NCBI GenBank assembly: GCA_964641245.1
Contig: CAZXML010000003.1
Coordinates: forward strand, 17,395-81,394
Direction of reading: 5' to 3'
DNA: 64,000 nt
DNA from: an uncultured Gammaproteobacteria bacterium
GTDB lineage: Bacteria; Patescibacteriota; Patescibacteriia; Magasanikbacterales; GWA2-37-8
In this document: piece after piece, positions 6,643 through 62,138 of the stretch
How the letters are laid out: each line of letters opens with the position of its first letter
Numbering within the stretch: position 1 is the stretch's first letter
Translations under genes and position numbers: made by a program
Notes under the pieces: model-generated
The model's input: the letters and a program-made list of their open reading frames with translations, nothing else
The model's database searches: none
Told to the model about the DNA's origin: nothing

Positions 6643-6708
6643 TGTCATCCTGAACTTGTTTCAGGATCTAATCGAGATACCAGATGCTGAACTAAATTCA
6701 GCATGACA
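6643..6708. repeat. Family A palindromic double-hairpin element
   Basis: gtcatcctgaacttgtttcaggatc ... gatgctgaactaaattcagcatgaca. Confidence 0.85.
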
Positions 6709-9697: not shown

Positions 9698-11422
9698 TTA
9701 CATTTCTTCAACTGTGTCAATAGTAAGAAGACTTAAAGCATTCTCTAAAACATTTTTTACGGCTCCGGATAAATGCAACCTGGCAGAAATTAAATCTTTA
9801 CTTTCCGCGCTTAAAATACTATGCTTATTGTAAAAATTATTGAACTGCTGAGCCAGATCAAAACAATAGCGGGTAATCGCGGACGGATTATATTCGCGCA
9901 AAGCTTCGGATACCACTTCTTCATACCGCGCTAAAAATAATAACAATTGTTTTTCTTCCGGTTTATCCAGCAATTCATATTTACTATTTGCTATCTGCTT
10001 CTTGCTATTTGCTTTTTTCAATATACTGTTAATCCTCGCCACCACATACAAAATATACGGACCGGTGAATCCGTCAAAAGAAGTGGCTTCTTTAATATCA
10101 AAAGTTATATTTTTAGCCGCTTCGTGTTTTTGCATATCAAACTTTAAAGCGGCCATAGTAAGAATACGCGAGGTTTGTATTATTTTTTTCTCGCTCCATT
10201 CCGGATGTCTTTGCGCCGATTCCAATTTTAGTTTTTCATAAATTTCATCGCGCAAATCTTCATATAAAATTACGTTGCCCAAACGGGAAGACATTTTTCC
10301 TTCCTTAAGATTTACCAAACCGTAACCAATGTGCGTAAGCTTATTTTTAAAACCGATTATTTCCAAAATTTTGTACAGTTGTTTAAAATAATGATTCTGC
10401 TCCGTGGCGGTTACCACAATACTTTCGTCAACATTAAATTTTTTAAATTTGGCCACCGCTAACGGCAGGTCGCTGGTTAAATACAAACCCGCGCCGTTTG
10501 ATTTGCGCAGCATAGCCACATCCAGATCGAATTTATTCAAATCAATTATAATCGCCCCGCCTTCGCCAACTTCGGCTACTCCCCGCAATAATAGGTCGTC
10601 TGTCATCTTTTGCCCTTTTTCTTTTAAATCTTTTTCATAAAATATTGCCGCGTGTTTTACGCCCAGTTGTTTAAATATTTCCGCAAATTTTTCTATGCTC
10701 CACTCTCTGGTTTCCATAAACAAAGGCCACAAATCCGGGTCATGCTCTTCCATTTTTTTCTGAATCTCGGCTACTTCTTTGCCGAAATCAGGATTGTCTT
10801 TTACCTGCCCGCTGGCCTCGGCATAAATATCGCCCAGCCATTTTTGTTTATTGGCCGGCGGTTTTTCATTTTTATGAAATTTGAGCAACCCCCACAAACA
10901 TTTAGCCACATGATTGCCAAAGTCATTTAAATAATTTACCGGATAAACTTTGTATCCGCTTTTTTGATAAAGCTGAACCAATGTATTGCCGATGCAAACA
11001 TTGCGCAAATGTCCGATGTGAAATTCCTTGTGAGTGTTGTTGGACGGATACTCAATTAAAACCCTCTTGCCTTTACCGGATTTATTGTTACCGTATTTTT
11101 CTTTTTGTTTTTGTATTTCACTAATTATTGTTTTTGCTAATTCCCCACTATTTAATGTTATATTAACATATGGACCAACGCTATGAACTTTTTCTATAAA
11201 AGGTAGGCCCATTTTGTTATTTCCTAATAACCTAACCATATTTTCAGCCACCAGCACATTCCCATCAGCGAGCGCAGTTTTTAATTTTAGTTTAAAACAC
11301 GGTATTGCAATGTCGTAGCCATAAACATCCAGAATTTTTTTGTCTGGCTCTTTAAAAGTCACTTCACCCTCAACGCCGGCGGCAACCAAAAATTCCACAA
11401 TTTTCTTTTTTATTTCCCGCAT
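9698..11422 (-). CDS. argS: Arginyl-tRNA synthetase
   Basis: 574 aa. HIGH-like motif HIGHLRN, MSSRLGN (KMSKS-like) and C-terminal DALR anticodon-binding region. Confidence 0.9.
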   Translation of the reverse strand: MREIKKKIVEFLVAAGVEGEVTFKEPDKKILDVYGYDIAIPCFKLKLKTALADGNVLVAENMVRLLGNNKMGLPFIEKVHSVGPYVNITLNSGELAKTIISEIQKQKEKYGNNKSGKGKRVLIEYPSNNTHKEFHIGHLRNVCIGNTLVQLYQKSGYKVYPVNYLNDFGNHVAKCLWGLLKFHKNEKPPANKQKWLGDIYAEASGQVKDNPDFGKEVAEIQKKMEEHDPDLWPLFMETREWSIEKFAEIFKQLGVKHAAIFYEKDLKEKGQKMTDDLLLRGVAEVGEGGAIIIDLNKFDLDVAMLRKSNGAGLYLTSDLPLAVAKFKKFNVDESIVVTATEQNHYFKQLYKILEIIGFKNKLTHIGYGLVNLKEGKMSSRLGNVILYEDLRDEIYEKLKLESAQRHPEWSEKKIIQTSRILTMAALKFDMQKHEAAKNITFDIKEATSFDGFTGPYILYVVARINSILKKANSKKQIANSKYELLDKPEEKQLLLFLARYEEVVSEALREYNPSAITRYCFDLAQQFNNFYNKHSILSAESKDLISARLHLSGAVKNVLENALSLLTIDTVEEM

Positions 11423-17562: not shown

Positions 17563-19197
17563 CTAAATCAATGCCTGTCCCGTCATATCTTCCGGTTGCG
17601 GAACACCCAGTAATTTTAAAACAGTTGGCGCCACGTCTGCCAATACCCCTACCGGATGCATTAAACTCAAATCCCCTTCCGGCGCGTCTCCAGCCGGGCC
17701 GGCTTGTCCCATAAACTCTTTGCCGATAACAATAAGAGGCACCGGATTGGTGGAATGTTCTTTGTCTATGGCGCCAGTCTGCAAATTAGTCATTTCTTCC
17801 GCGTTGCCATGATCGGCGGTAATCACCACCACTCCGTTTTGCGCCAAAGTATGATCCACAATTTCTCCCAAACATTTGTCGGTGACTTCACAGGCTTTAA
17901 TACCCGCTTGCAAATCCCCGGTATGAGCGACCATATCCGCGTTGGCCAGATTTAAAACCACAAAATCATATTTGGCGCTGTCAATCATTTTGCTTACTTC
18001 TTTGGTAATTTCTATCGCGGACATTTCCGGTTTTTGATCGTAACTGGAAACTTTTGCCGAAGGAATCATTAATCTGTCTTCTCCGGCAAACGGATTCTCT
18101 ACCGTGCCGTTTAAAAAGAAAGTAACGTGGGCGTATTTTTCCGTTTCGGCCACATGCATTTGCTTTAAACCGGCTTTACTGATTACTTCCGCCAAACTGT
18201 TGTGTACCACTATCGGCGCGTAAGCCACCACCGCCGGCAGTTCTTTTTCGTACTCGGTCATGGTGACGAAAAATAAATCTTTTTGATATTCTTTGGTGAA
18301 TTTATTAAAGGAAGGAACCACAAATGCCTGGGTTAATTCCCGCGCGCGGTCCGGTCTGAAGTTAAAAAATATCACCGCGTCATTATTATCTATGGTGGCC
18401 ACCGGTTTATCCTTGGAAGTTATAACCGTGGGAATAAATTCTTCATCGTAATTTTTTTGCGCGTAAGCTTCATCTATTACTTTAATGGGGTCTTCGGCAT
18501 ACCGATCGGCTTTGCCTTCAGCCATAGCGCGGTAGGCTTTTTCGCATCTGTCCCAACGGTTGTCGCGGTCCATGGCATAATAGCGCCCGGATAGAGTGGC
18601 GATTTTTCCCACTTTTAATTCGGACATTTTACCCTGCAGTTCCTGAACAAATTCTTTTCCGGAATTATACAGAGCGTCGCGGCCGTCTAAAATAGCATGG
18701 ATAAATACATTCTTTGTTAATTTTTCTTTTTTACAAAGTTCCAGTAAAGCGTAAAGATGCGCATTGCTGGCATGCACATTTCCGGAACTGACCAAACCAA
18801 CCAAATGCAATTTTGGTTTAGCGAAACCATGCCGCGTACCGTCATTTGAAACGCGGCTTTCTTCTTTTACTTTGGCAATGGCCGATAAAAGCGCGGGGTT
18901 GGAAAAAAACGCCCCGCTTTCTATTTCCTGATTTATTCTTGGACAACTTTGATAATAAACCCGGCCGGCGCCGATGTTTAAATGACCCACTTCCGAGTTT
19001 CCCATCTCGCCAAACATTAACCCCACTTCACTGCCCGAAGCGTGGATAGTCATGGTGGGATAATTTTTTAGAAATTTTACAAAATTAGGCGTTTGCGCCT
19101 TGGTGATGGCGTTGCCGTCCGCGCCCGGAGCAACACCCCAGCCATCCATGATGATCAAAATAACTGGTTTATAATTCATACAATTTATAATTGTCAT
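17563..19197 (-). CDS. gpmI: 2,3-bisphosphoglycerate-independent phosphoglycerate mutase
   Basis: 544 aa. IIMDGWG N-terminus and metal-binding Ser/His/Asp pattern of iPGM. Confidence 0.9.
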   Translation of the reverse strand: MTIINCMNYKPVILIIMDGWGVAPGADGNAITKAQTPNFVKFLKNYPTMTIHASGSEVGLMFGEMGNSEVGHLNIGAGRVYYQSCPRINQEIESGAFFSNPALLSAIAKVKEESRVSNDGTRHGFAKPKLHLVGLVSSGNVHASNAHLYALLELCKKEKLTKNVFIHAILDGRDALYNSGKEFVQELQGKMSELKVGKIATLSGRYYAMDRDNRWDRCEKAYRAMAEGKADRYAEDPIKVIDEAYAQKNYDEEFIPTVITSKDKPVATIDNNDAVIFFNFRPDRARELTQAFVVPSFNKFTKEYQKDLFFVTMTEYEKELPAVVAYAPIVVHNSLAEVISKAGLKQMHVAETEKYAHVTFFLNGTVENPFAGEDRLMIPSAKVSSYDQKPEMSAIEITKEVSKMIDSAKYDFVVLNLANADMVAHTGDLQAGIKACEVTDKCLGEIVDHTLAQNGVVVITADHGNAEEMTNLQTGAIDKEHSTNPVPLIVIGKEFMGQAGPAGDAPEGDLSLMHPVGVLADVAPTVLKLLGVPQPEDMTGQALI

Positions 19198-19249
19198 GCT
19201 GAACTTGTTTCAGCATCTCTTGATAGATCCTGAAATGAATTCAGGATGA
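19192..19249. repeat. Family A palindromic element (its ATGACA terminus supplies the gpmI start codon)
   Basis: tgtcatgctgaacttgtttcagcatc ... gatcctgaaatgaattcaggatga. Confidence 0.8.
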
Positions 19250-19256
19250 TGTTGAT

Positions 19257-20807
19257 TTAAATCAAACTTTTCGCTGTCATTTCCGGTGGCTGTTTTATGC
19301 CCATCATTTTTAAAATAGTGGGAGCAACATTGGCCAGCTTGCCGTCCGGCAATTTAAGAGGCGCCGGCACGCGGCTGTTTATTAGAATAAACGGCACCGG
19401 ATTAAGTGAGTGTTCGGTATCAGGTTCGCCACTTTGCTCCTTTATCATTTCTTCTACATTTCCATGATCCGCAGTGACAACTGCCTGTCCGCCGTGTTTT
19501 GTTAAAACTTTAATTACGCGCGCCATTTCGGCATCGACAATACTTACTCCTTTTTGCGCGGAGGCAAAATTTCCCGTATGCGCCACCATATCCATATTGG
19601 CAAAATTCATGGCAATAAACTCGTATTCACCCGATTCAATGGCGCCAATTGCGTAATCGGCCAGCAGTTTGGCGCTCATCTCCGTATTGTTCTCATAATT
19701 TTTTACTCCCAATGAGGCGATTTTTACCCACTTTTCATTGCAAAAATGCTGCGCGTAACCGCCATTAAAAAAATAAGTAATATGCGCAAATTTTTCCGAT
19801 TCCGCTATGTACATTTGTTTTCTGGGACATAATACTTGCACCAAGCTATTGGTAACATCTCGGCTGGGAAAAGCGGTAAGTACCCCCGGTAAATCCGGGC
19901 CAAAATCACTAAGAGCTACAAAGCGGATATTTTTTGGATACTTTTCTCTTGTAAACGCTCCGGGATTAAGCTCTTTAAAATTTGGCTGCACAAAAACTTT
20001 GGTAATTTGCCGCGCCCGGTCGCTGCGTAAATTAAAAAAGAAAATAGCATCATTGTCTTTTATGGTGGCTACGGGATGATTATTTTCCATAATTACCGTG
20101 GGAGAAACAAATTCGTCCGTGTCTTCGTGATTATAGGCGTTTCTAAGACCGTCTTCAATGCTTGTGGCGCTAAATCCCTTGCCCAAAACCATAGCTTCAT
20201 AAGCTTGCTTGACGCGGTTCCAATCTTTATTTCTGTCCATAGCATAAAAACGGCCCATTACGGTGGCCACTTTTTCATTGCCATGAAAAAATTTTTCCAG
20301 AAGCCGCAAATGCTTGTGCGCTTCGTATTGGCCGGAATCCCGACCGTCCGTAAAAAGATGCAGATAAACCTTTTTTATTTTTTCGAGATGAAATAACTCC
20401 AACAAAGCCTGGAGATGCTCCGGGCAAGAATGCGCGCTGCTATGATTAGATAATAATCCCATTACGTGAACTGCGGTTTTATATTTTTTTACATGATGAA
20501 TCGCTTCGTGGAAGGCGTTATTTTTAAAAAACGTGCCGTCTTCAATTGAGTCGGATATATAAAGCGCGTCTTGTTTTACCACTCTGCCCGCGCCTAAATT
20601 TAAATGACCGGCTTCACTGTTGCCTGCCTGCCCCTTAAACAGCCCGACACTCTCACCGCTGGCCTCCAATTTGCAATTAGGATATTTTTTAAGCGCCCTA
20701 AAATAATTTGGCGCTGTTTTGGGAGTGATTGGATTGCCCGGTTCATGAGGGTTTCCAATTCCCCAACCATCTACAATCATTAAAAGTGTTGTTTTAAATT
20801 TTTTCAT
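19257..20807 (-). CDS. gpmI: iPGM paralog (second 2,3-BPG-independent phosphoglycerate mutase)
   Basis: 516 aa. LLMIVDGWGIG and homology throughout to the upstream copy. Confidence 0.85.
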   Translation of the reverse strand: MKKFKTTLLMIVDGWGIGNPHEPGNPITPKTAPNYFRALKKYPNCKLEASGESVGLFKGQAGNSEAGHLNLGAGRVVKQDALYISDSIEDGTFFKNNAFHEAIHHVKKYKTAVHVMGLLSNHSSAHSCPEHLQALLELFHLEKIKKVYLHLFTDGRDSGQYEAHKHLRLLEKFFHGNEKVATVMGRFYAMDRNKDWNRVKQAYEAMVLGKGFSATSIEDGLRNAYNHEDTDEFVSPTVIMENNHPVATIKDNDAIFFFNLRSDRARQITKVFVQPNFKELNPGAFTREKYPKNIRFVALSDFGPDLPGVLTAFPSRDVTNSLVQVLCPRKQMYIAESEKFAHITYFFNGGYAQHFCNEKWVKIASLGVKNYENNTEMSAKLLADYAIGAIESGEYEFIAMNFANMDMVAHTGNFASAQKGVSIVDAEMARVIKVLTKHGGQAVVTADHGNVEEMIKEQSGEPDTEHSLNPVPFILINSRVPAPLKLPDGKLANVAPTILKMMGIKQPPEMTAKSLI

Positions 20808-22088: not shown

Positions 22089-22157
22089 TGTCATGCTGAA
22101 CTCGTTTCAGCATCTACTGTACACTTGATTAGATCCTGAAACAAGTTCAGGATGACA
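22089..22157. repeat. Family A palindromic element
   Basis: tgtcatgctgaactcgtttcagcatc ... gatcctgaaacaagttcaggatgaca. Confidence 0.85.
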
Positions 22158-24451: not shown

Positions 24452-25504
24452 TTACTCCGTTAAATTTTCATACCCAACCTCATCCGGCCACAAATAATGG
24501 TCAAAAGTCCATTCCGCCAAATCACGCGCTTCGCTGAATCTGGCTTCATTGGTGGCGGCGCCGAATATTACCACCGTGATGCCGTGTTTTTTTTCATTGC
24601 TTAAACTGACAACAAAATTATAGCCGGAGTCGTCTATGTAGCCGGTTTTGCCGGCGATGTTTTCCACTTTAAAATTATTGGGAATCCAGTTTGTTAACAG
24701 CCAGTTGGTTGTCCAAACTCTTCTGAGTTTATTGCCGTTTAGCGGTTGGACGTAATACTCTCCGGTCTGCACAGTGGTAAAAATTTTATCAAATTTTAAA
24801 GCGTCTATGAGCAGTTTGGCCGTATCCAGCGCATTGGCCATATTTTTACCGGATAACCCGGTTGGCTCGCTAAAACGGGCCGACGCCAGACGCAAATCTT
24901 TTGCTTTGGCGTTCATCAAACCGACAAACGCCTCTTTGGAAATTCCGGAATTTCTTACTAGCGCGTTAATAGATGCGTTGGAAGAACCAATTAATGCTAC
25001 ATGCCACAAATCTTCCAAGGTGAATTTTTCGCCCACATTAACATGATGATCCCCGGCCACATCGTCGTCCATAATTACGGTTGTTGACGCCCAATCAACC
25101 GGCAAATCCATTAATACCATGGCGGTCATTAATTTAGTAATGCTGGCCAGTGAACGAACTTCGCCGGTATTTTTACTGAATAAAACAGTTTTTGTTTTGG
25201 TGTCTACCACGATCGCCTCGGCGGCCGTGCTGGAACCGGAAAAAACAACCTTATCTTTTGCCAGAGGAACAGCTGGTTTGCTGGCCGGTAAATTTTCCAG
25301 ATAAACATCCCCGCCGGCCATTACTCTTTTACCGCCTGCCTGGCCGGCAGGCAGGCTGGCGGGAAATTTAAGAAAACTAAGATTATTTCCGGGAGCAAAA
25401 AAAACCGAAGAAAAAAATAACAATAAAACGCCGGCCAGCATTATGCCGAAGGATGATAAAAAATCTGTGACTTTGTTGGACATACTTTTCGCGCGGTTTG
25501 TCAT
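24452..25504 (-). CDS. D-alanyl-D-alanine carboxypeptidase (peptidase S11, PBP5/6-like)
   Basis: 350 aa. SxxK (SITK), SxN (SSN) and KTG motifs. N-terminal TM anchor. Confidence 0.8.
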   Translation of the reverse strand: MTNRAKSMSNKVTDFLSSFGIMLAGVLLLFFSSVFFAPGNNLSFLKFPASLPAGQAGGKRVMAGGDVYLENLPASKPAVPLAKDKVVFSGSSTAAEAIVVDTKTKTVLFSKNTGEVRSLASITKLMTAMVLMDLPVDWASTTVIMDDDVAGDHHVNVGEKFTLEDLWHVALIGSSNASINALVRNSGISKEAFVGLMNAKAKDLRLASARFSEPTGLSGKNMANALDTAKLLIDALKFDKIFTTVQTGEYYVQPLNGNKLRRVWTTNWLLTNWIPNNFKVENIAGKTGYIDDSGYNFVVSLSNEKKHGITVVIFGAATNEARFSEARDLAEWTFDHYLWPDEVGYENLTE

Positions 25505-25559
25505 GCTGAACTTGTTTCAGCATCTTTCGTGTAGATCCTGAAACAAGTTCAGGATGACA
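25499..25559. repeat. Family A palindromic element (ATGACA terminus is the dacA-like start codon)
   Basis: tgtcatgctgaacttgtttcagcatc ... gatcctgaaacaagttcaggatgaca. Confidence 0.85.
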
Positions 25560-26133: not shown

Positions 26134-26844
26134 CTAGTTTTTAGTAACTAATAAATCTTCAAACGCGTTTACCTGCCGGAAACGAACCGATTGCTGTTTG
26201 ACTAATTCCAGAATGGCTAAAAAACTGACTATGACTTCGGTTTTATTTTGCGCCGAGGACAGCAAATTTTTAAAGCTGAATTCTTTTCCGCTTTTTAATA
26301 ACTCACGGATGGAGTCTATTTTTTGCTTGATGGAAATAGAATGATCGATGCTTACCTTTGGCAACGGCTCCAGCGGTTTTAAGCGGTTAAGCAGAAAAAC
26401 CATGGAGTTGTACAAATTATTCGTAGTGGCATTGACCGGTAAAACAAATTCTTTAGACTTTATCGGCGGCTCAATTCTGCCGTAAGCAATTTTATTGGCC
26501 TCCCACAAACTATTTACGGTCTTACTGGCCTCTACATACTGTTTGTATAATTTTAACTGATCCGCCAGCCCCGGACCAGTATCCTCTTCTTCGGGAAACG
26601 CGTACTGCAACAAGCTATGCGATTTTAAATAAATAAGCCGGGCGGCAACAACCAAAAAATCTGCCAGTTCTTCGGGACGATTTTTTTCCAGCTTGTCTAA
26701 ATAGGAAAAAAACTGCTCGGTAACTTTGGCTAAGGCAATTTCGGTGATGCTTAACTTTTCCTGATCAACCAGTTGCAACAATAAATCCAAAGGCCCTTCA
26801 AATTTTTCCAGTTTTAGTTCTTGCATATAACTTACTTTTGTCAT
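26134..26844 (-). CDS. scpA: Segregation and condensation protein A
   Basis: 236 aa. LELLLQLVDQEKLSITEIALAKVTEQF. Confidence 0.8.
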   Translation of the reverse strand: MTKVSYMQELKLEKFEGPLDLLLQLVDQEKLSITEIALAKVTEQFFSYLDKLEKNRPEELADFLVVAARLIYLKSHSLLQYAFPEEEDTGPGLADQLKLYKQYVEASKTVNSLWEANKIAYGRIEPPIKSKEFVLPVNATTNNLYNSMVFLLNRLKPLEPLPKVSIDHSISIKQKIDSIRELLKSGKEFSFKNLLSSAQNKTEVIVSFLAILELVKQQSVRFRQVNAFEDLLVTKN

Positions 26845-26910
26845 CCTGAACTTGTTTCAGGATCTTTCGAATCTGACGGCGATAGATGCTGAAACAAGTT
26901 CAGCATGACA
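26839..26910. repeat. Family A palindromic element (ATGACA terminus is the scpA start codon)
   Basis: tgtcatcctgaacttgtttcaggatc ... gatgctgaaacaagttcagcatgaca. Confidence 0.85.
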
Positions 26911-30663: not shown

Positions 30664-30686
30664 ATTTTAATTGTTTACGCAACATA

Positions 30687-30770
30687 CCCCTCTCTCTGTC
30701 TCTCCCCTAAAAGGGGAGAGGACGATTGAGTGAATTGACATTGCCTGTCGTGGTCGTTCCTCCCCGCTTT
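30687..30770. repeat. Family E palindromic element (cccctctctctgtctctcccctaaaaggggagagg) plus a related tcgttcctcccc half
   Basis: Other copies at 43515-43625 and 45792-45886. Confidence 0.8.
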
Positions 30771-32170: not shown

Positions 32171-32534
32171 TGTCATCCTGAATGAAATGAAGGATCTCTG
32201 TCTTGTCCAATTAACTGATTATACAAGTCCTGCCATCTAAAATTTTGTTTTGTTATGATTTCCACTTTTCTATTACGCTTCCAGCCTTTCAATTCTTTTT
32301 CTCTTTTAATAGCATCATTTATATTAAAAAAGTGTTCATAATATACCAATTTTTTACACTTATATTTTTTCGTAAAGCCATCGATTATTCCGGCTCTGTG
32401 TTCTTCTACTCGTCTAATAAGGTCATTTGTCACTCCTATATAATACACAACTTACACTAGCCATTATGTATACATAATAATTGTGATTGGCCATAAGAAA
32501 CAGACAGAGATTCTTCGCTTTGCTCAGAATGACA
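32171..32534. mobile_element. Family B element, full-length form: its terminal inverted repeats enclose a GIY-YIG ORF
   Basis: Left arm tgtcatcctgaatgaaatgaaggatctctgtc (32171-32202) and right arm gacagagattcttcgctttgctcagaatgaca (32503-32534). These are the same arms that bound the about 80 bp MITE copies. The ORF stop TGA lies inside the left arm. The right arm is followed by a 3x atgggaca tandem. Confidence 0.6.
32173..32448 (-). CDS. GIY-YIG nuclease family protein (UPF0213/YhbQ-like), N-terminally truncated
   Basis: YYIGVTNDLIRRVEEHRAG = YxG...TxDLxRRxxEH core. GTG start with in-frame TAA two codons upstream. The first beta-strand (GIY) is missing. Confidence 0.65.
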   Translation of the reverse strand: MYYIGVTNDLIRRVEEHRAGIIDGFTKKYKCKKLVYYEHFFNINDAIKREKELKGWKRNRKVEIITKQNFRWQDLYNQLIGQDRDPSFHSG

Positions 32535-32578: not shown

Positions 32579-33934
32579 CTAAACGACTTTCGCAAATATA
32601 CATTTCAAATACTCCCCTTCGGTAAAAGCCACCAATTCCGGATGGTCTATGCCGTGGGTATAGGTTTCCAAAACCTGCAAAGTCTGGCGCGCCCGGCCGG
32701 CTGATTCGGATAACATATATCTAAAATCAGATAAAGTAACGTGGGCCGAACAAGAGGCTGTAATCAGTACGCCACCTGGTGATAATAATCGTAAAGACGC
32801 TTCGTTTATTTTTTTATAACCAATTAATCCTTCCTGAACTTTGCGCCTGTCTTTTACAAAGGCCGGCGGATCCAGGATGATGATGTCAAATTGACTTGAA
32901 CCTGACCTCACCCTGCCCTCTCCTCGCAGGAGAGGATTTATCGACTCCTTCTCCTTTGAGGAGAAGGTTGGGATGAGGTCTGGATTATTCAAATACTGCT
33001 TCACATCCCCGCAAATAAATTCGCATTTTTTTAAATCTAATTTATTAAGTTTTACGTTTTCTTGGGCCAATTCCAAGGCGCTCTGAGAAGAATCCACGCT
33101 AATCACATGCTTGGCTCCCCCGCCCAAAGCATAGACGCTAAACCCGCCGGAATAAGAAAAACAGTTCAAAACATTTTTATCTTCCGCGTATTTCATCAAC
33201 GCCTGTCTTTTATCGCGCTGGTCCAGAAAAAAACCGGTTTTTTGCCCGCCAATCACATCCACCCAGAACTTAAATCCGTTTTCAATAATTTTTATTCTCT
33301 CAGGCACTTTGCCATACAATAGGCCTGCGAGCGCTGTTTTATTTGTCATTCCGACGTCGAAGGAGGAATCTCTGTCTGGTTGTTTCGCGGAAGGGTGAGA
33401 CAGAGATCCCTCGTCGGCTACGGCCTCGCTCGGGATGACAATGTGCCGCTTAAGCCTCTGCGCCACATCCGATCTTTCATAAATACCGGTTGGTTTTAAG
33501 ATTTTTTTTAAGGCGTCAACGATTTTATCTTTCCACACTTCCATGCCCTGCGTATGAAACTGCAACACCAAATAATCCGCGTATTTGTCTACAATCAACC
33601 CGGGCAACAAATCGTTTTCACTGTGAACCATGCGGTAAGAATCCGTATTTTTACTAGCCACAAAATTCTTTCTGATGGCATAGGCCTGATTAATTCTTTT
33701 TTCAAAAAATTTGTCATCCACCGTTTCCTGTTCGTCCCAACTCCAAAGCCGCACCGCTATTTGCGAATAAGAATTAAAATATCCCTGCGCCAGAAATTGA
33801 CCTTCTTCGTTTACCAAAATCACCGCTTCGCCGCTTTTTAGGCCTTCGGGAATCTGTTTGAGCGCGCCAGAAAATACCCACGGGTGACGGCCAAGGATAG
33901 GACCAATTCTTTGTTTTTGAACAACCAACTTCAT
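32579..33934 (-). CDS. rlmI: 23S rRNA m5C methyltransferase RlmI-like (PUA + class I MTase) with two in-frame palindromic-repeat insertions
   Basis: Start MKLVVQKQRIGPILGRHPWVF. FDIIILDPPAF and SAM-binding GGFS motifs. Insertions at 32903-32979 and 33344-33440. Confidence 0.75.
   Translation of the reverse strand: MKLVVQKQRIGPILGRHPWVFSGALKQIPEGLKSGEAVILVNEEGQFLAQGYFNSYSQIAVRLWSWDEQETVDDKFFEKRINQAYAIRKNFVASKNTDSYRMVHSENDLLPGLIVDKYADYLVLQFHTQGMEVWKDKIVDALKKILKPTGIYERSDVAQRLKRHIVIPSEAVADEGSLSHPSAKQPDRDSSFDVGMTNKTALAGLLYGKVPERIKIIENGFKFWVDVIGGQKTGFFLDQRDKRQALMKYAEDKNVLNCFSYSGGFSVYALGGGAKHVISVDSSQSALELAQENVKLNKLDLKKCEFICGDVKQYLNNPDLIPTFSSKEKESINPLLRGEGRVRSGSSQFDIIILDPPAFVKDRRKVQEGLIGYKKINEASLRLLSPGGVLITASCSAHVTLSDFRYMLSESAGRARQTLQVLETYTHGIDHPELVAFTEGEYLKCIFAKVV
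32903..32979. repeat. Family F palindromic element inside rlmI (in-frame)
   Basis: gacctcaccctgccctctcctcgcaggagagg ... ctccttctcctttgaggagaaggttgggatgaggtc. Encodes PTFSSKEKESINPLLRGEGRVRSGSS. Confidence 0.75.
33344..33440. repeat. Family B2 palindromic element inside rlmI (in-frame)
   Basis: tgtcattccgacgtcgaaggaggaatctctgtc ... gagacagagatccctcgtcggc...cgggatgaca. Related copy at 35529-35624. Confidence 0.8.
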
Positions 33935-34019
33935 CATGATAAATGGATTATTAATAATTGAGAGTATACCAAACAAAAACACCCAGCGCAATGGCCGGGT
34001 GTTTTCTTAATATAAATTT

Positions 34020-43517: not shown

Positions 43518-43625
43518 TACTTCGTCGTTCCTCCCCCTTTTAGGGGGAGGGCAGGGTGGGGGTATTTGTTCGTGGTACAACCGCCGATATACCCCTCTCT
43601 CTATCTCTCCCCTAAAAGGGGAGAG
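43515..43625. repeat. Two family E palindromic elements (ccccctttta ggggg / cccctctctctatctctcccctaaaaggggagag)
   Basis: Seen directly. Same family as 30687 and 45792. Confidence 0.8.
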
Positions 43626-43652
43626 AACCCCACCGAGTCCAGTCGGCTCTTA

Positions 43653-44156: not shown

Positions 44157-44228
44157 TAAATAGCAATAAACAATGAACAAAAAGCAACCGACCGTTTAAT
44201 TTGTTAATTGTTAATTGCTAATTGTTAG

Positions 44229-45323
44229 TTGCTAATTAATCCTATGAACAACAAATATAAAGATCTACAATCCAAATTCGCCAAGCTGGAAGCCGATTTG
44301 CAAAATCCGGTTGTGCTTGGTGATTCCAGAAAAGTAAAAGAAGTTGCCCAGGAATATAATGAATTAAAACCGGCCATGGAAAAAATAAAAGAACTGGCCG
44401 GAGTGGAAAACAGCATCGCGGAAACGGAACTGATTATAAAAGGCAATGATGAAGAAATGAAAGAAATGGCCACTGCAGAAATTGATGATTTAGAAATTAA
44501 GAAATTAAATTTAGAAAAAGAGCTGGACGAAATGACCCGTCCGCAGGATCCGTTTGATAAAAAAAATGTGATTGTGGAAATACGCGCCGGCGTGGGTGGA
44601 GATGAGTCCGCTCTTTTTGCCGCGGATTTGTACCGCATGTACAGCCGTTATGCCGAAAATAAAGGCTGGAAAGTAAACACGCTGGATTCAAACAAAATCG
44701 GCATCGGCGGTTTCAAAGAAATTATATTTTCCATAAAAGGCAAGAACGTCTACAAAGATTTAAAATATGAAATGGGCGTGCACCGCGTGCAAAGAGTTCC
44801 GGACACGGAAAAAGCCGGACGCATTCATACCTCCACCGCCACGGTAGCTGTGATGCCGGAAATAGAAGAAACCGAATTTAAAATTGATCCAAAAGATTTG
44901 CGCATAGACACTATGACAGCCGGCGGACACGGCGGTCAAAGCGTGAACACCACTTACTCTGCCGTGCGCCTTGTGTATATTCCAACCGGCATGATCGTGC
45001 AGTGCCAAGACGAACGTTCACAAACCGCCAACCGCGAAAAAGCCATGGCCGTAATGCGCTCCCGCTTGTTTGCCATAGAACAGGAAAGAAAAATGAAAGA
45101 ACTGACCGAAAAAAGGCGCGCCCAAATTGGCAGCGGCGACAGAAGCGAAAAAATCCGCACCTACAATTTCCCTCAAGATCGCATTACCGACCACCGCATT
45201 CACCAAAGCTGGAACAGCATCCCCCGAATTTTAGACGGCGAACTAGAACCGATTATTTTGGCCGTGCGCGCGGCGGATTACGCGGGGTTGGATTATTCCG
45301 GCACGGATGAAGACGAAGAATAA
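44229..45323 (+). CDS. prfA: Peptide chain release factor 1
   Basis: GGQ motif ([18 protein letters not shown]). Followed by prmC. The true start may be MNNKYKDLQ at 44247. Confidence 0.85.
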
Positions 45324-46182
45324 TATGTTGGATTTTGATTTGCTAAAGGCGCATGCCATAAAAAAACCAAAAGAATTTTTATACTCTCATCCCGAATATC
45401 GTTTATCAGTTTGGCAAAAACTGCGTTTAAAATATTTTCTCTCCCTGCGCAAAAAGGGCTATTCCGTAGCCGTCATTACCAAGCATAAAGAATTTTACGG
45501 CTTGGATTTTTTTGTGAATAAACACGTTTTAATCCCCCGCCCCGACACCGAGTTGATGGTGGCAGAAGCGATCGAAGAAATTAAAAAAAATGATAAGATA
45601 ATTTTAGTTGATGTTGGTACCGGAAGCGGGTGCATACCAATTTCTATTTTAAAAAATATACCAAACCAAATACAAACATTTGCGACCGATATTTCGAACG
45701 CGGCTTTGCGAGTAGCGAAAAAAAATGCCCGAATACATAATGTGAACATTAAATTTTTCCACGGTAACTTGCTTGAACCAATTTTCAAAAACCCCTCTCT
45801 CTGTCTCTCCCCTTATAGGGGAGAGAGGAACGAACTCCTCTCTGTAGTTCCCTCCCCTATAAGGGGAGGGGCGAAGGGTGGGGTTTTCATCACCGCCAAC
45901 CTCCCCTACCTTACCAAACAACAATTTCAATCCGAACCGAGCATTCAAAAAGAACCAAAAATCGCACTCACGGCAAAAAATAACGGCTTGGCTTTATACG
46001 AAGAATTATTTAATCAAATAAAAAATGCCGGTCTGACAGCAACTATACTTACAGAAATCGACCCTTCTCAAACCGATGCAATCTCCCAACTTATAAACCA
46101 ATATCTTCCCGGCTCAAAAATTGAAATAAAAAAAGACCTCGCCGGGCGAGATCGTTTAGTAAAAATTGTCATGTCATCCTGA
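45307..46182 (+). CDS. prmC: Release factor glutamine methyltransferase PrmC/HemK with in-frame repeat insertion
   Basis: VLIPRPDTE and VGTGSGCI motifs. The NPPY box reads NLPY. A 30-aa insertion ([30 protein letters not shown]) is encoded by a family E palindrome. The stop codon is supplied by a family A repeat. Confidence 0.8.
45792..45886. repeat. Family E palindromic element pair inside prmC (in-frame)
   Basis: cccctctctctgtctctccccttataggggagagg ... ttccctcccctataaggggaggggcgaagggtgggg. Confidence 0.8.
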
Positions 46183-46237
46183 ACTTGTTTCAGGATCTGT
46201 CACCAACCAAAGATGCTGAAATAAATTCAGCATGACA
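46173..46237. repeat. Family A palindromic element
   Basis: tgtcatcctgaacttgtttcaggatc ... gatgctgaaataaattcagcatgaca. Confidence 0.85.
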
Positions 46238-47334: not shown

Positions 47335-47419
47335 TGTCATCCTGAACTTGTTTCAGGATCTTCGTTATTGTTCCGTAGATGCTGAAACAAGTAGATCCTG
47401 AAACAAGTTCAGGATGACA
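47335..47419. repeat. Family A palindromic element (three-hairpin variant)
   Basis: tgtcatcctgaacttgtttcaggatc..gatgctgaaacaagtagatcctgaaacaagttcaggatgaca. Confidence 0.85.
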
Positions 47420-48197: not shown

Positions 48198-48222
48198 ATG
48201 ATAATATTATTTTGTCATGCTG

Positions 48223-48270
48223 AATTTATTTCAGCATCTACGTAGATCCTGAAACTAGTTCAGGATGACA
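48223..48270. repeat. Family A palindromic element
   Basis: tgtcatgctgaatttatttcagcatc..gatcctgaaactagttcaggatgaca. Confidence 0.85.
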
Positions 48271-56042: not shown

Positions 56043-56048
56043 TTTAAC

Positions 56049-56189
56049 TGTCATCCTGAACTTGTTTCAGGATCTCTGTCCGTGAGTTGTCATTCCCGCC
56101 CGAGAGCGGGAATCCAGTCGACGATTGTCTGGATTCCCAATCAAGTTGGGAATGACATGCGCAGATGCTGAAATAAATTCAGCATGACA
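56049..56189. repeat. Family A element with a nested family D element (56088-56157)
   Basis: tgtcatcctgaacttgtttcaggatctctgtccgtgagt[tgtcattcccgcccgagagcgggaatccag...ggattcccaatcaagttgggaatgaca]tgcgcagatgctgaaataaattcagcatgaca. Confidence 0.8.
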
Positions 56190-56202
56190 AAAAACACATT
56201 AT

Positions 56203-56773: not shown

Positions 56774-56912
56774 TGTCATTCTGAGCACAGCGAAGAATCC
56801 CTCTCTGTCATTCTCGCCAAAGCGGGAATCCAGTGTCCGATTGTCTGGATTCCCATTGTTATGGGAATGACAATTAAACGGACAGAGATCCTTCACTACG
56901 TTCAGGATGACA
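56774..56912. repeat. Family B element (inverted) with a nested family D element (56816-56872)
   Basis: tgtcattctgagcacagcgaagaatccctctc[tgtcattctcgccaaagcgggaatccag...ggattcccattgttatgggaatgaca]attaaacggacagagatccttcactacgttcaggatgaca. Confidence 0.8.
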
Positions 56913-58147: not shown

Positions 58148-59311
58148 TCACTCACTCATGTCGGTTATCAGCATCGCATCGCCAAAACTAAAAAAACGAT
58201 ACTTTTCGGCAACTGCTTTATCGTAACATCTTAGCACAAACTCTCTATCATTTGCAAGCGCGCAAACCAACATCAGCAAAGTGGACTTTGGCAGATGGAA
58301 ATTGGTAATTAGCGCGTCTACAATTTTAAATTTAAAACCGGGATAAATAAAAATATTGATATCGCCGGAATACGGACGCAAAATTGGAAATTGGAAATTA
58401 GAAATTAGAAATTTTTGGGCAACGCCTTCCAATACTCGAACCGTAGTCGTCCCCACCGCCACCACTCGCCTACCTTCGGCTTTGGCCTGATTTATTAAAT
58501 CGGCATTTTTTGATGTCAGTTCTACCCACTCGCTATGCATACGATGTTCCTCCAAACTTTCGGTTTTCACCGGCAAAAACGTTCCCAATCCCACATGCAA
58601 AGTTACTTCCGCAAATTCCACCCCTTTATCCTTCAATTTTTCTATCAGCTCCGGAGTAAAATGAAACCCGGCCGTTGGCGCCGCCACCGACCCTTCTTCT
58701 TTGGCGTACACCGTTTGGTATCGGTTTGTTAATTGTTCATTGTTAATTGTTAACTGGTCAATATACGGTGGTGTCGGCACTTCCCCATATTTATTCGCTT
58801 TCGCCCGCACCAACATATCGTCCTCTTCAAACTGAATTAAAAAAGTGCCGTCATTTTCTCTTAACATTACTTCAGCGCTAAAGTCCGGAGCAAAAACAAT
58901 TTTCATTCCCAAGCGCAACTTTCTGCCCGGCTTAGCCAGCGCTTTCCACACTTTATTATTTTCCATTGGCTTGACCAAAAAAATTTCTACCGGCGTGGCG
59001 TTTAAAATTTTACCGGTAGTGACTACTTTTCCCACCAAACCATCCGTTTCTTCATCCAACATTATTTGACCGCGCAAACGGGCCTTAAAAACTTTGGTAT
59101 TATTCCAAACCAACAAATCCCCTTTTTTTAAACAATCAACAATATCAAAAAAATGTTTGTCTTCAACTTTTTTTGCTTTTCTATCTAAAACCATCAAACG
59201 CGAACTATCGCGCGGTTCCAACGGAATTTGCGCGATGAGCTGTTTGGGTAAATTATAATCAAAATCAGAGGCTAACATACTAGAGCTTTCTTTTATTCGC
59301 ATTATGCTCAT
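58148..59311 (-). CDS. queA: S-adenosylmethionine:tRNA ribosyltransferase-isomerase
   Basis: 387 aa. IFIYPGFKFKIVDALITNFHLPKSTLLMLV. Contains a (gaaattN)x5 tandem at 58379-58413. Confidence 0.9.
   Translation of the reverse strand: MSIMRIKESSSMLASDFDYNLPKQLIAQIPLEPRDSSRLMVLDRKAKKVEDKHFFDIVDCLKKGDLLVWNNTKVFKARLRGQIMLDEETDGLVGKVVTTGKILNATPVEIFLVKPMENNKVWKALAKPGRKLRLGMKIVFAPDFSAEVMLRENDGTFLIQFEEDDMLVRAKANKYGEVPTPPYIDQLTINNEQLTNRYQTVYAKEEGSVAAPTAGFHFTPELIEKLKDKGVEFAEVTLHVGLGTFLPVKTESLEEHRMHSEWVELTSKNADLINQAKAEGRRVVAVGTTTVRVLEGVAQKFLISNFQFPILRPYSGDINIFIYPGFKFKIVDALITNFHLPKSTLLMLVCALANDREFVLRCYDKAVAEKYRFFSFGDAMLITDMSE
58379..58413. repeat. Heptamer tandem repeat gaaattg/gaaatta x5 inside queA
   Basis: Seen directly. 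Encodes ISNFQFPI, extra relative to typical QueA. Confidence 0.7.
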
Positions 59312-62064: not shown

Positions 62065-62138
62065 GCGCCCGTAGCTCAGTGGTTAGAGCACTGCCCTTAT
62101 AAGGCAGGGGTCCTCGGTTCAAGTCCAAGCGGGCGCAC
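62065..62138 (+). tRNA. tRNA-Ile with anticodon TAT (UAU)
   Basis: gcgcccg ta gctcagtggttagagc a ctgcc cTTATAa ggcag gggtc ctcgg ttcaagt ccaag cgggcgc a. Isoleucine-type D-arm. Perfect acceptor and anticodon stems. One C-A mismatch in the T-stem. No encoded CCA. Confidence 0.7.

Follow-up and report, generated by a model that had tools for sequence, protein, structure and literature searches.

How does one palindromic repeat come to lie, complete, inside another, and does its position there mean that such repeats move? The question is raised by positions 56049-56189 of a 64,000-nt stretch of DNA analysed here as a whole (the window; GCA_964641245.1, contig CAZXML010000003.1, positions 17,395-81,394, forward strand). 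In the spacer between secE and nusG, a doublet of hairpins of one type (A; TGTCAT-hairpin ... hairpin-ATGACA) contains within its own spacer a complete 70-bp doublet of a second type (D). An earlier note on this DNA, which assigned the two palindromes to families A and D, had described a nested insertion at this place, and we confirm that 56049-56189 is a real nested doublet, correctly observed. The best explanation, to which we give a probability of about 0.7, is a doublet-in-doublet of hairpin motifs related to those of the small GIY-YIG nuclease Ssn, in which the outer A doublet was resident and the D doublet entered its spacer.

The interruption of an A element, between its two hairpins, by a complete D element at 56088-56157 is borne out to the base by the sequence. 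The 5' unit of the outer doublet, TGTCATCCTGAACTTGTTTCAGGATC (56049-56074, plus strand), consists of a TGTC tag, an 8-bp stem ATCCTGAA/TTCAGGAT with loop CTTGT, and then a C; it is followed by a 13-nt left remnant of the A spacer, TCTGTCCGTGAGT (56075-56087). The inner 70-nt doublet, TGTCATTCCCGCCCGAGAGCGGGAATCCAG-TCGACGATTGT-CTGGATTCCCAATCAAGTTGGGAATGACA (56088-56157), has a left unit TGTCATTCCCGC-CCGAGA-GCGGGAATCCAG (56088-56117, plus strand) that is like the NTS/dRS3 repeat (ATTCCC..GGGAAT) with a 6-nt loop, a spacer TCGACGATTGT (56118-56128), and a right unit on the minus strand (56129-56157; reverse complement TGTCATTCCCAACTTGATTGGGAATCCAG). Beyond it lie the 6-nt right remnant of the A spacer, TGCGCA (56158-56163), and the outer 3' unit GATGCTGAAATAAATTCAGCATGACA (56164-56189, minus strand; reverse complement TGTCATGCTGAATTTATTTCAGCATC), with stem ATGCTGAA/TTCAGCAT. 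Folded as single-stranded DNA, 56049-56189 reaches -33.3 kcal/mol (z = -6.2 versus shuffles), and the 25-mer of the A unit matches the window 13 times at no more than three mismatches versus no match in 100 shuffles.

Alignment to uninterrupted A doublets, as the earlier note had proposed, shows what D has interrupted. Relative to the seven other A doublets in the same polarity, which include the reference copy at 26839-26910 (plus strand) and those at 6643-6708, 19192-19251, 22089-22157, 25499-25559, 46172-46237 and 48213-48270, the 70-nt block in the spacer is the sole difference of the nested copy. Without D, the spacer would be 13+6 = 19 nt, and the spacers of intact A doublets are 6-20 nt. 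A target duplication had also been suggested (tgtc/ctctgtc); this is absent, as the CTGTC that precedes D is unmatched on the right-hand side, and the sequences that border D inside A, GTGAGT and TGCGCA, hold no repeat.

The arrangement is not unique. About 700 bp downstream, in the nusG-rplK spacer, a B doublet (56774-56912, plus strand; units 56774-56799 and 56887-56912) holds the only other D copy in the window (56806-56872). Counting their spacer, which is kept in the second copy as CCAGTnnnCGATTGTCTGG, the two D copies have an identity of 82%, and the similarity ends exactly at TGTCAT/ATGACA (3/25 and 7/25 matches in the flanks). Both D copies of the window thus lie in the spacers of other doublets (rough chance 0.005), and D is a discrete unit at each of the two sites.

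To see D outside this genome, we scanned bacteria, one genome per species, with the pattern GGGAATCCAG-N5-20-CTGGATTCCC. D-type stretches were found at at least 120 loci in Proteobacteria, Nitrospirota, Planctomycetota, Acidobacteriota, Chloroflexota, Rickettsia, Patescibacteria and others. Most of the listed matches are solo doublets of the form (C/T)GTCATTCCCGC..GCGGGAATCCAG - spacer - CTGGATTCCCGC..GCGGGAATGAC(A/G) with unrelated flanks, more than 100 of the copies being in other phyla, and solo doublets at L087 and L120 in other genomes combine the very unit types that are combined in the window copies. Judged by these matches, D is a discrete NTS-type unit that occurs solo across most bacterial phyla. 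At the roughly 130 loci examined for unit arrangement, with a unit finder that required a C 3' of the palindrome, the order '+-' occurred 106 times, '-+' twice and the nested '++--' three times, two of these three in the window. Among the listed pan-bacterial D doublets, 19% have complementary flanks of at least 7 nt, versus 4% of controls (p = 5e-6). At L044, L052, L124 and L081, in other phyla, hairpins lie inside the loops of other hairpins, for example a TGTCCCCGC..GCGGGGA unit in the loop of an ATTCCC..GGGAAT unit.

Are A and D then separate families? By scanning for GTCAT with a hairpin after it, and by subsequent inspection, we detected 18 doublets in the window, all of the form TGTCAT...ATGACA, which together amount to about 1.8 kb (2.8%), or about one per 3.6 kb; 17 of the 18 fill short intergenic spacers. 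All share one plan, in which two inverted units with their TGTCAT ends outward are separated by a short spacer, and each unit comprises a TGTC tag, a palindrome initiated by AT and a C directly after it. All 36 units, including the four at 56049-56189, begin (T)GTC and then AT..., and the C immediately 3' of the palindrome is present in every one (...GGATC, ...GCATC, ...GGAATCC). Every doublet of the window is a heterodimer of two different units: the A doublet pairs a ATCCTGAA stem with a ATGCTGAA stem, the difference being a compensatory C-G to G-C change, and the B doublet pairs ATTCTGAG... with ATCCTGAA.... The A and D units have the TGTC tag, 8-bp stems (ATCCTGAA, ATGCTGAA, ATTCCCGC, ATTCCCAA) and loops of 4-6 nt, with tails CT in A and CCAG in D; in the B, C and E units only the five outer bases are paired and the interiors are GA-rich. 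The families A, B, C, D and E are one superfamily, the repetitive extragenic palindromes (REPs) tagged CGTC/TGTC, that is, Ssn-related motifs (SRMs; NTS/dRS3). The families of the earlier note are members of a single superfamily that had already been described.

What kind of element has such ends? One lies in the window itself. In the B-type element at 32171-32534 (minus strand), the 338-nt insert between the units holds a minus-strand gene for a small GIY-YIG protein (PF01541, E 1.5e-13), and the stop codon of this ssn-like gene falls in the terminal ATGACA. The family call made for the window gene is PF01541; the published subfamily bears the label cd10448. A frameshift within a TATATA run (...VLY|IGVTNDL...) splits the gene into two parts (32423-32494 and 32173-32448, minus strand). 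JGI contig L130 has this frameshift too, so that either the gene is a pseudogene or the frameshift is a shared assembly error. Homologues of the window protein are numerous in Patescibacteria, Chloroflexota, Bacteroidota and Proteobacteria; many, in several phyla, end ...DRDPSLRSG*, which is the 3' unit read through, and one begins CHSEQSEES, the 5' unit read through. Between the window protein and one that is flanked by near-canonical NTS units the identity is 48%, and the Ssn proteins of genes flanked by B (window 32171-32534), A (L140) and NTS (L065, L054) repeats share 48-55% identity. No further GIY-YIG gene was found in the window beyond the frameshifted one, either with a profile of 120 homologues against six-frame open reading frames (ORFs) or with a motif regular expression. 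A sequence search of the PDB found no deposited Ssn structure, the nearest entries being the distant UPF0213 proteins 1zg2 and 1ywl.

The A type connects such a gene to the nested site. The Ssn homologue P0227, at locus L140, ends VDAETSSA*, which is the A-type GC unit, and the order of the locus is TGTCATCCCGAACTTGTTTCGGGATCC - ssn gene - GATGCTGAAACAAGTTCAGCATGACA, that is, CC-type unit, gene, GC unit. Its 3' unit is a 26-mer identical to A units of the window, such as the 3' unit of the doublet at 26839-26910, and its 5' unit matches the CC unit of the window but for a single compensatory pair. Because L140 has this order with near-identical units, the A doublet can be recognised as the two ends of one gene-carrying element in fixed polarity. 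All eight intact A doublets of the window are likewise heterodimers of a CC-stem and a GC-stem unit in that fixed polarity. The earlier note had considered that its A copy might be two half-elements with no shared ancestry; the eight of eight heterodimers of one polarity and the match to the ends of the L140 element contradict this. The inner ends of the L140 element and the A-doublet spacers, compared by eye, have no convincing similarity.

The identical A-type 3' 26-mer occurs both in L140 (2961-3321; GCA_009926845.1, labelled Alphaproteobacteria) and in 10 IMG/VR contig stretches (L142-L151), one of which (L151, 541-840) has an ssn homologue followed by several units. There are hints here that the A-type unit has spread across phyla, possibly on phage-like DNA, the contigs being labelled as viral.

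To get a comparative perspective on both nested sites, we gathered 13 related loci through NusG homologues and seven contig look-ups; their NusG proteins are 92-100% identical and their DNA is about 82-94% identical. The nusG-rplK spacer has three states. L134 has no doublet (...gatcgcggat^aaaaatccggcttctcgatc) and carries a small CGGAT-AAAA-ATCCG hairpin; L001 has a B doublet at the same point (gcggat|TGTCAT..ATGACA|aaaatccggc); and the window has the orthologous B doublet with D inside (56774-56912). The B doublet of L001 sits at the loop edge of the hairpin that is intact in L134, and comparison of the empty (gcggat^aaaaatcc) and filled sites reveals no target duplication, with an ambiguity of 0-1 nt. 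In the window copy, the TGTC of D coincides with the end of the B inner repeat CTCTGTC, the partner of which, GACAGAG, lies 8 nt past D. At the secE-nusG site (window 56043-56202; L008 2943-3032; L134 1-38), the very junctions used by A (ttaac|TGTCAT ... ATGACA|aa(a/t)aca) enclose a C-type doublet in L008 and L009 and an E-type unit in L134; the remaining relatives have unrelated palindromes, and no relative is empty. L001 also has a B doublet between queA and yceG and another in frame inside queA, both absent in the window. By this comparison, doublets come and go between related strains, which supports mobility. The earlier note had taken nesting as direct evidence of mobility; mobility finds its support independently, in the strain comparison, and nesting by itself is indirect evidence.

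Other insertions in these regions deserve mention. QueA of L001 (1713-2966, minus strand; window 58148-59311, minus strand) holds two in-frame inserts, of which one is the B doublet (NCHSEQREESLLSNQEGSFTSVQDDR) and the other reads PSFPRRGRGGLPE...SLPLGKGE. At the same QueA loop the window has KFLISNFQFP and L005 another peptide, so that the loop is a hot spot for repeat insertion in a conserved enzyme. In five related contigs the nusG-rplK spacer contains a 118-aa PF05635 gene (L002 3603-3959, L003 2462-2818, L004 2786-3142, L008 3671-4027, L009 2340-2696), of the 23S rRNA intervening-sequence or bAvd-like four-helix kind, which the window lacks; gacttcagacttcggac-type repeats lie ahead of it.

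How might a D doublet have entered an A doublet? A doublet would be an ssn-carrying element reduced to its two ends, analogous to a miniature inverted-repeat transposable element (MITE) or to a REPIN, the REP doublet that forms a hairpin. The A doublet would have been resident in the secE-nusG spacer first, with the NTS-type D later arriving in its spacer; as against an origin by recombination, the simplest route would be insertion of the whole D doublet. Each strand of a doublet has one correctly oriented unit at its 5' side, and a cognate Ssn could nick each strand just outside the doublet when the DNA is single-stranded or extruded. Host replication or repair would then complete the move, a step that we infer because a hydrolytic GIY-YIG nuclease is not, to our knowledge, expected to perform strand transfer itself. 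Exposed single-stranded hairpin tips, such as the spacers of doublets, may be favoured as targets. This preference is suggested by the position of both D copies in doublet spacers, the B doublet at a native hairpin loop, the complementary flanks of D and the hairpin-in-loop cases elsewhere; as a general rule, it is a hypothesis backed by the pan-bacterial D sample and not by the 18 doublets of the window. The wider claim, that Ssn-related doublets are active non-autonomous transposable elements with distinct 5' and 3' hairpins, mobilised through single-stranded DNA by small GIY-YIG nucleases and preferring exposed hairpin tips, is one we put forward tentatively, and we would lay somewhat longer odds against it than for it.

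Several observations weigh against this explanation. No target-site duplication accompanies either the B insertion or D. The D+ and D- alleles at nusG-rplK do not form a clean indel: L001 has 12 nt (ggggcgttaagg) that cannot be aligned with the D plus 14 nt (attaaacggacaga) of the window, and gain and loss of D therefore cannot be told apart. At secE-nusG, where the junction predicted for an A doublet lacking D is CTGTCCGTGAGT(N0-3)TGCGCAGATGC, none of the 13 related loci has an A-only allele, and one metagenome scan anchored on the 5' end of nusG recovered only an already known contig and no such allele. Each A doublet has a spacer unrelated to those of the others, an observation that simple copy-and-paste of entire doublets leaves unaccounted for, and the flanks of the 18 window doublets have no excess of complementarity. 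The only ssn gene in the 64 kb is frameshifted and of B type, with neither an A-type nor a D-type gene found there. The published SRM motif, HGTCWYN(0-2)YYVSBRHN(0-5)WNVSBRGN(0-2)RNCYNB, has no match in the window, L001, L008, L134 or L140; of 120 NTS-type loci used as a positive control, 97 had matches to it, 188 in all. Finally, Ssn has been shown to be a nuclease that affects transformation, not a transposase (PMC11893778).

Some of these observations would fit an account in which nesting arose from errors of recombination or replication between palindromes. The hairpins have TGTCAT ends and inner motifs like CTCTGTC in common, and one doublet could be placed in or over another through template switching, gene conversion or illegitimate recombination between them, the similarity of units being maintained by conversion and by selection for nuclease recognition. 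Three families occupy identical secE-nusG junctions in close relatives, which replacement explains more easily than a separate hit by each family; at the D junction in B, TGTC is common to D and the inner repeat of B, and the D+ and D- alleles there form no clean indel; A units are near-identical and their spacers unrelated; and the rearranged doublet at 47335 has an extra half unit. Yet D keeps its own spacer and sharp ends at both sites, copies within other single genomes often share their spacer (L016 being an exception), and in L001 a B doublet has entered a unique site that is otherwise empty in L134. Shared ends of six bases are also too short for ordinary homologous recombination. We consider this account unlikely, albeit one to be taken seriously. 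A quite different doubt is that the nested structure was assembled falsely from repeated 26-mers, and JGI contigs do break at such repeats, L130 ending exactly at the doublet 26839-26910. The identical 141-bp structure is nevertheless found with unique flanks inside a separately listed 18.7-kb JGI contig (L136; 99.95% identity over 4.2 kb), the structure is symmetric, the second nested case is organised alike, and the whole element is about one read long with spacers of unique sequence, so that an artefact is scarcely credible.

If the doublets are mobile, the link to GIY-YIG nucleases might still be incidental. Inverted hairpin doublets that have a conserved 4-nt tag, leave the target unduplicated and insert into doublets already present recall the architecture of REPINs and of bacterial interspersed mosaic elements (BIMEs), and a tyrosine (HUH/Y1) transposase of the RAYT (REP-associated tyrosine transposase) or IS200-IS605 type, or another transposase elsewhere in the genome, could move them. 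The tag is TGTC/CGTC and not GTAG, however, Di Nocera et al. found no transposase dedicated to CGTC REPs (PMC3733652), and the gene found between matching units is GIY-YIG in the window, in L140 and in L065. Neither Y1_Tnp nor another transposase family was detected at E<=1e-6 in the 40 window ORFs scanned, or in the Pfam annotation of the overlapping contigs L130 and L136. On this evidence such a transposase seems to us improbable. Hairpins kept by the host for structural or regulatory purposes (transcript ends, mRNA stabilisers, or control of transformation as in Neisseria), with nesting as mere crowding, would account for the 17 of 18 doublets that fill the short intergenic spacers of a compact genome and for the palindrome of some kind in every relative's secE-nusG spacer, and NTS together with SsnA does modulate transformation in Neisseria (PMC11893778). 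Such selection leaves unexplained the strict '++--' nesting with matched outer units, the in-frame copies within genes (33344-33440; queA of L001), the empty nusG-rplK site of L134, and the near-identical units across phyla and on viral-classed contigs; nor does any Rfam family match. As a full explanation it is very improbable, and as an additional role it is compatible with mobility. Insertion of D into a resident A doublet remains our preferred explanation of 56049-56189.

Several further features of the window were recorded. The A doublet at 47335-47419 is rearranged: beyond its CC unit and spacer, the GC unit is present only in its first half (GATGCTGAAACAAGT) and is followed by a second CC unit, complete and inverted, which looks like a switch within the loop. 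At 46166-46177 (TGTCA|TGTCAT) a five-base repeat of the tag stands at the left end of the doublet 46172-46237. The A doublet 19192-19251, whose right end is degenerate (ATGATG), is all that separates two tandem paralogues of cofactor-independent phosphoglycerate mutase (17563-19197 and 19257-20807). An E-type doublet at 33344-33440 lies in frame inside a PUA/SAM-methyltransferase gene (ORF 32579-33991, minus strand; peptide ...SAKQPDRDSSFDVGMT...), and the same protein holds PLLRGEGRVRSG, from another repeat family. A separate family of hairpins, CCCCTCTCTCT..TCTCCCCT-AAAA-GGGGAGAG (30684-30723, 43589-43628, 45789-45828 and 45834-45873), has no TGTC tag and turns up inside proteins too. Low-complexity palindromes, in which a left word is repeated and its complement is repeated on the right (gatgaa.../...ttcatc, ttgctaattg...), lie at 9980-10018, 44200-44238 and 58725-58763; in L001-L007, L131-L133 and L139 such palindromes fill the same intergenic spacers with differences from strain to strain. 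A reading of the B and C units (CTGAG...CGAAG) as hammerhead or k-turn, made by eye, was dropped, the conserved cores being absent. An Rfam scan of the whole window returned two tRNAs only and no RNA family over the repeats. A tRNA-Ile at 62065-62138 has the anticodon TAT, the usual counterpart being the lysidine-modified CAT form.

The elements discussed here are of the kind described in 2013 and 2025, and nesting has a precedent in REPINs. New are the host lineage, the families missed by the published motif, and a modest amount of comparative evidence that doublets are gained, lost and nested. The locus bears on the mobility of Ssn elements, a question left open by Di Nocera 2013 and Chenal 2025, to which it adds a doublet within a doublet, a series of empty, single and nested alleles at one site, and matched 5' and 3' units in gene-carrying and gene-less forms; evidence of this kind established REPINs as mobile. 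As the published SRM motif misses the families of the window, surveys may underestimate the elements in such genomes. In practice the repeats also give ORFs false starts and tails, place insertions in frame within real proteins and cause contigs to break. Were the elements active, they would constitute a class of GIY-YIG-nuclease transposons parallel to RAYT/REPIN and IS200/IS605, and one abundant in genomes of the candidate phyla radiation, where the published motif misses it.

Of the known systems, the closest is that of Chenal et al. 2025, who defined NTS (CGTCATTCCCGCGMAVGCGGGAATCYRG) and the wider SRMs (PMC11893778). SsnA is a 94-aa single-domain GIY-YIG protein that binds NTS only as single-stranded DNA and cuts upstream of it, at a distance of a few bases; binding depends critically on the C that follows the palindrome and cleavage on the three bases that precede it (GTC), and the identity of the loop is not essential (PMC11893778). 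SRMs are found near 71% of ssn homologues, and the arrangement NTS-ssnA-NTS was likened to an insertion sequence, mobility being left as a hypothesis and the demonstrated role being restriction of transformation (PMC11893778). The window shares with this system oriented hairpin repeats whose palindrome is directly preceded by GTC and directly followed by C, a small single-domain GIY-YIG gene between units (32171-32534; L140; L065) and a high copy density in a host-associated lineage. In the D unit at 56088-56117 the stem is that of NTS (ATTCCCGC/GCGGGAAT) and the tail is CCAG, but the first base is T rather than C and the loop has 6 nt rather than 4. Unlike NTS, the A, B, C and E families of the window have other stems, and the host here is a Patescibacterium (Magasanikbacteria), its NusG homologues placing it near Candidatus Magasanikbacteria. 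Doublets as a unit, nesting, and empty and filled alleles do not figure in that study and are seen here (PMC11893778).

The CGTC-tagged REPs of Di Nocera, De Gregorio & Rocco 2013 have a CGTC/TGTC tag, 8-9 bp stems that start from AT, a 4-5 nt loop and a CCA tail; they are mostly head-to-head dimers, often heterodimers, include CGTC-1, which is Neisseria dRS3, as well as RPE-4 and RPE-6 of Rickettsia, and were concluded to lack a dedicated transposase (PMC3733652). The tag, the AT-starting stems and the short tail all recur here, head-to-head dimers predominate in both ('+-' versus '-+' in our counts), and in both some copies lie in frame within genes and some dimers lie within larger palindromes. 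The in-frame doublet at 33344-33440 likewise resembles the gene-inserting Rickettsia palindromic elements. The 2013 survey differs in that Patescibacteria are not among its listed carrier phyla and that it has no dimer-in-dimer nesting of two CGTC-type families (PMC3733652).

REPINs replicate as doublets of inverted hairpin repeats (Bertels & Rainey 2011; PMC3116915). REPINs with their RAYTs, and the BIMEs of enterobacteria, resemble the present elements in this doublet unit and in having flavours that are each tied to an enzyme gene of their own flanked by the repeats; insertion of a doublet into or beside another doublet has been reported for REPINs as well. The difference lies in the parts, a GTAG tag and an HUH/Y1 transposase there versus a TGTC tag and a GIY-YIG nuclease gene here. 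MITEs derived from DDE insertion sequences (for example Correia/NEMIS, RUP, Nezha) are similarly short, non-autonomous, intergenic and hairpin-folding, and similarly correspond to the two ends of a gene-carrying element. In contrast to those, the doublets described here come with no target-site duplication and no DDE transposase, and their ends are small hairpins rather than simple inverted repeats.

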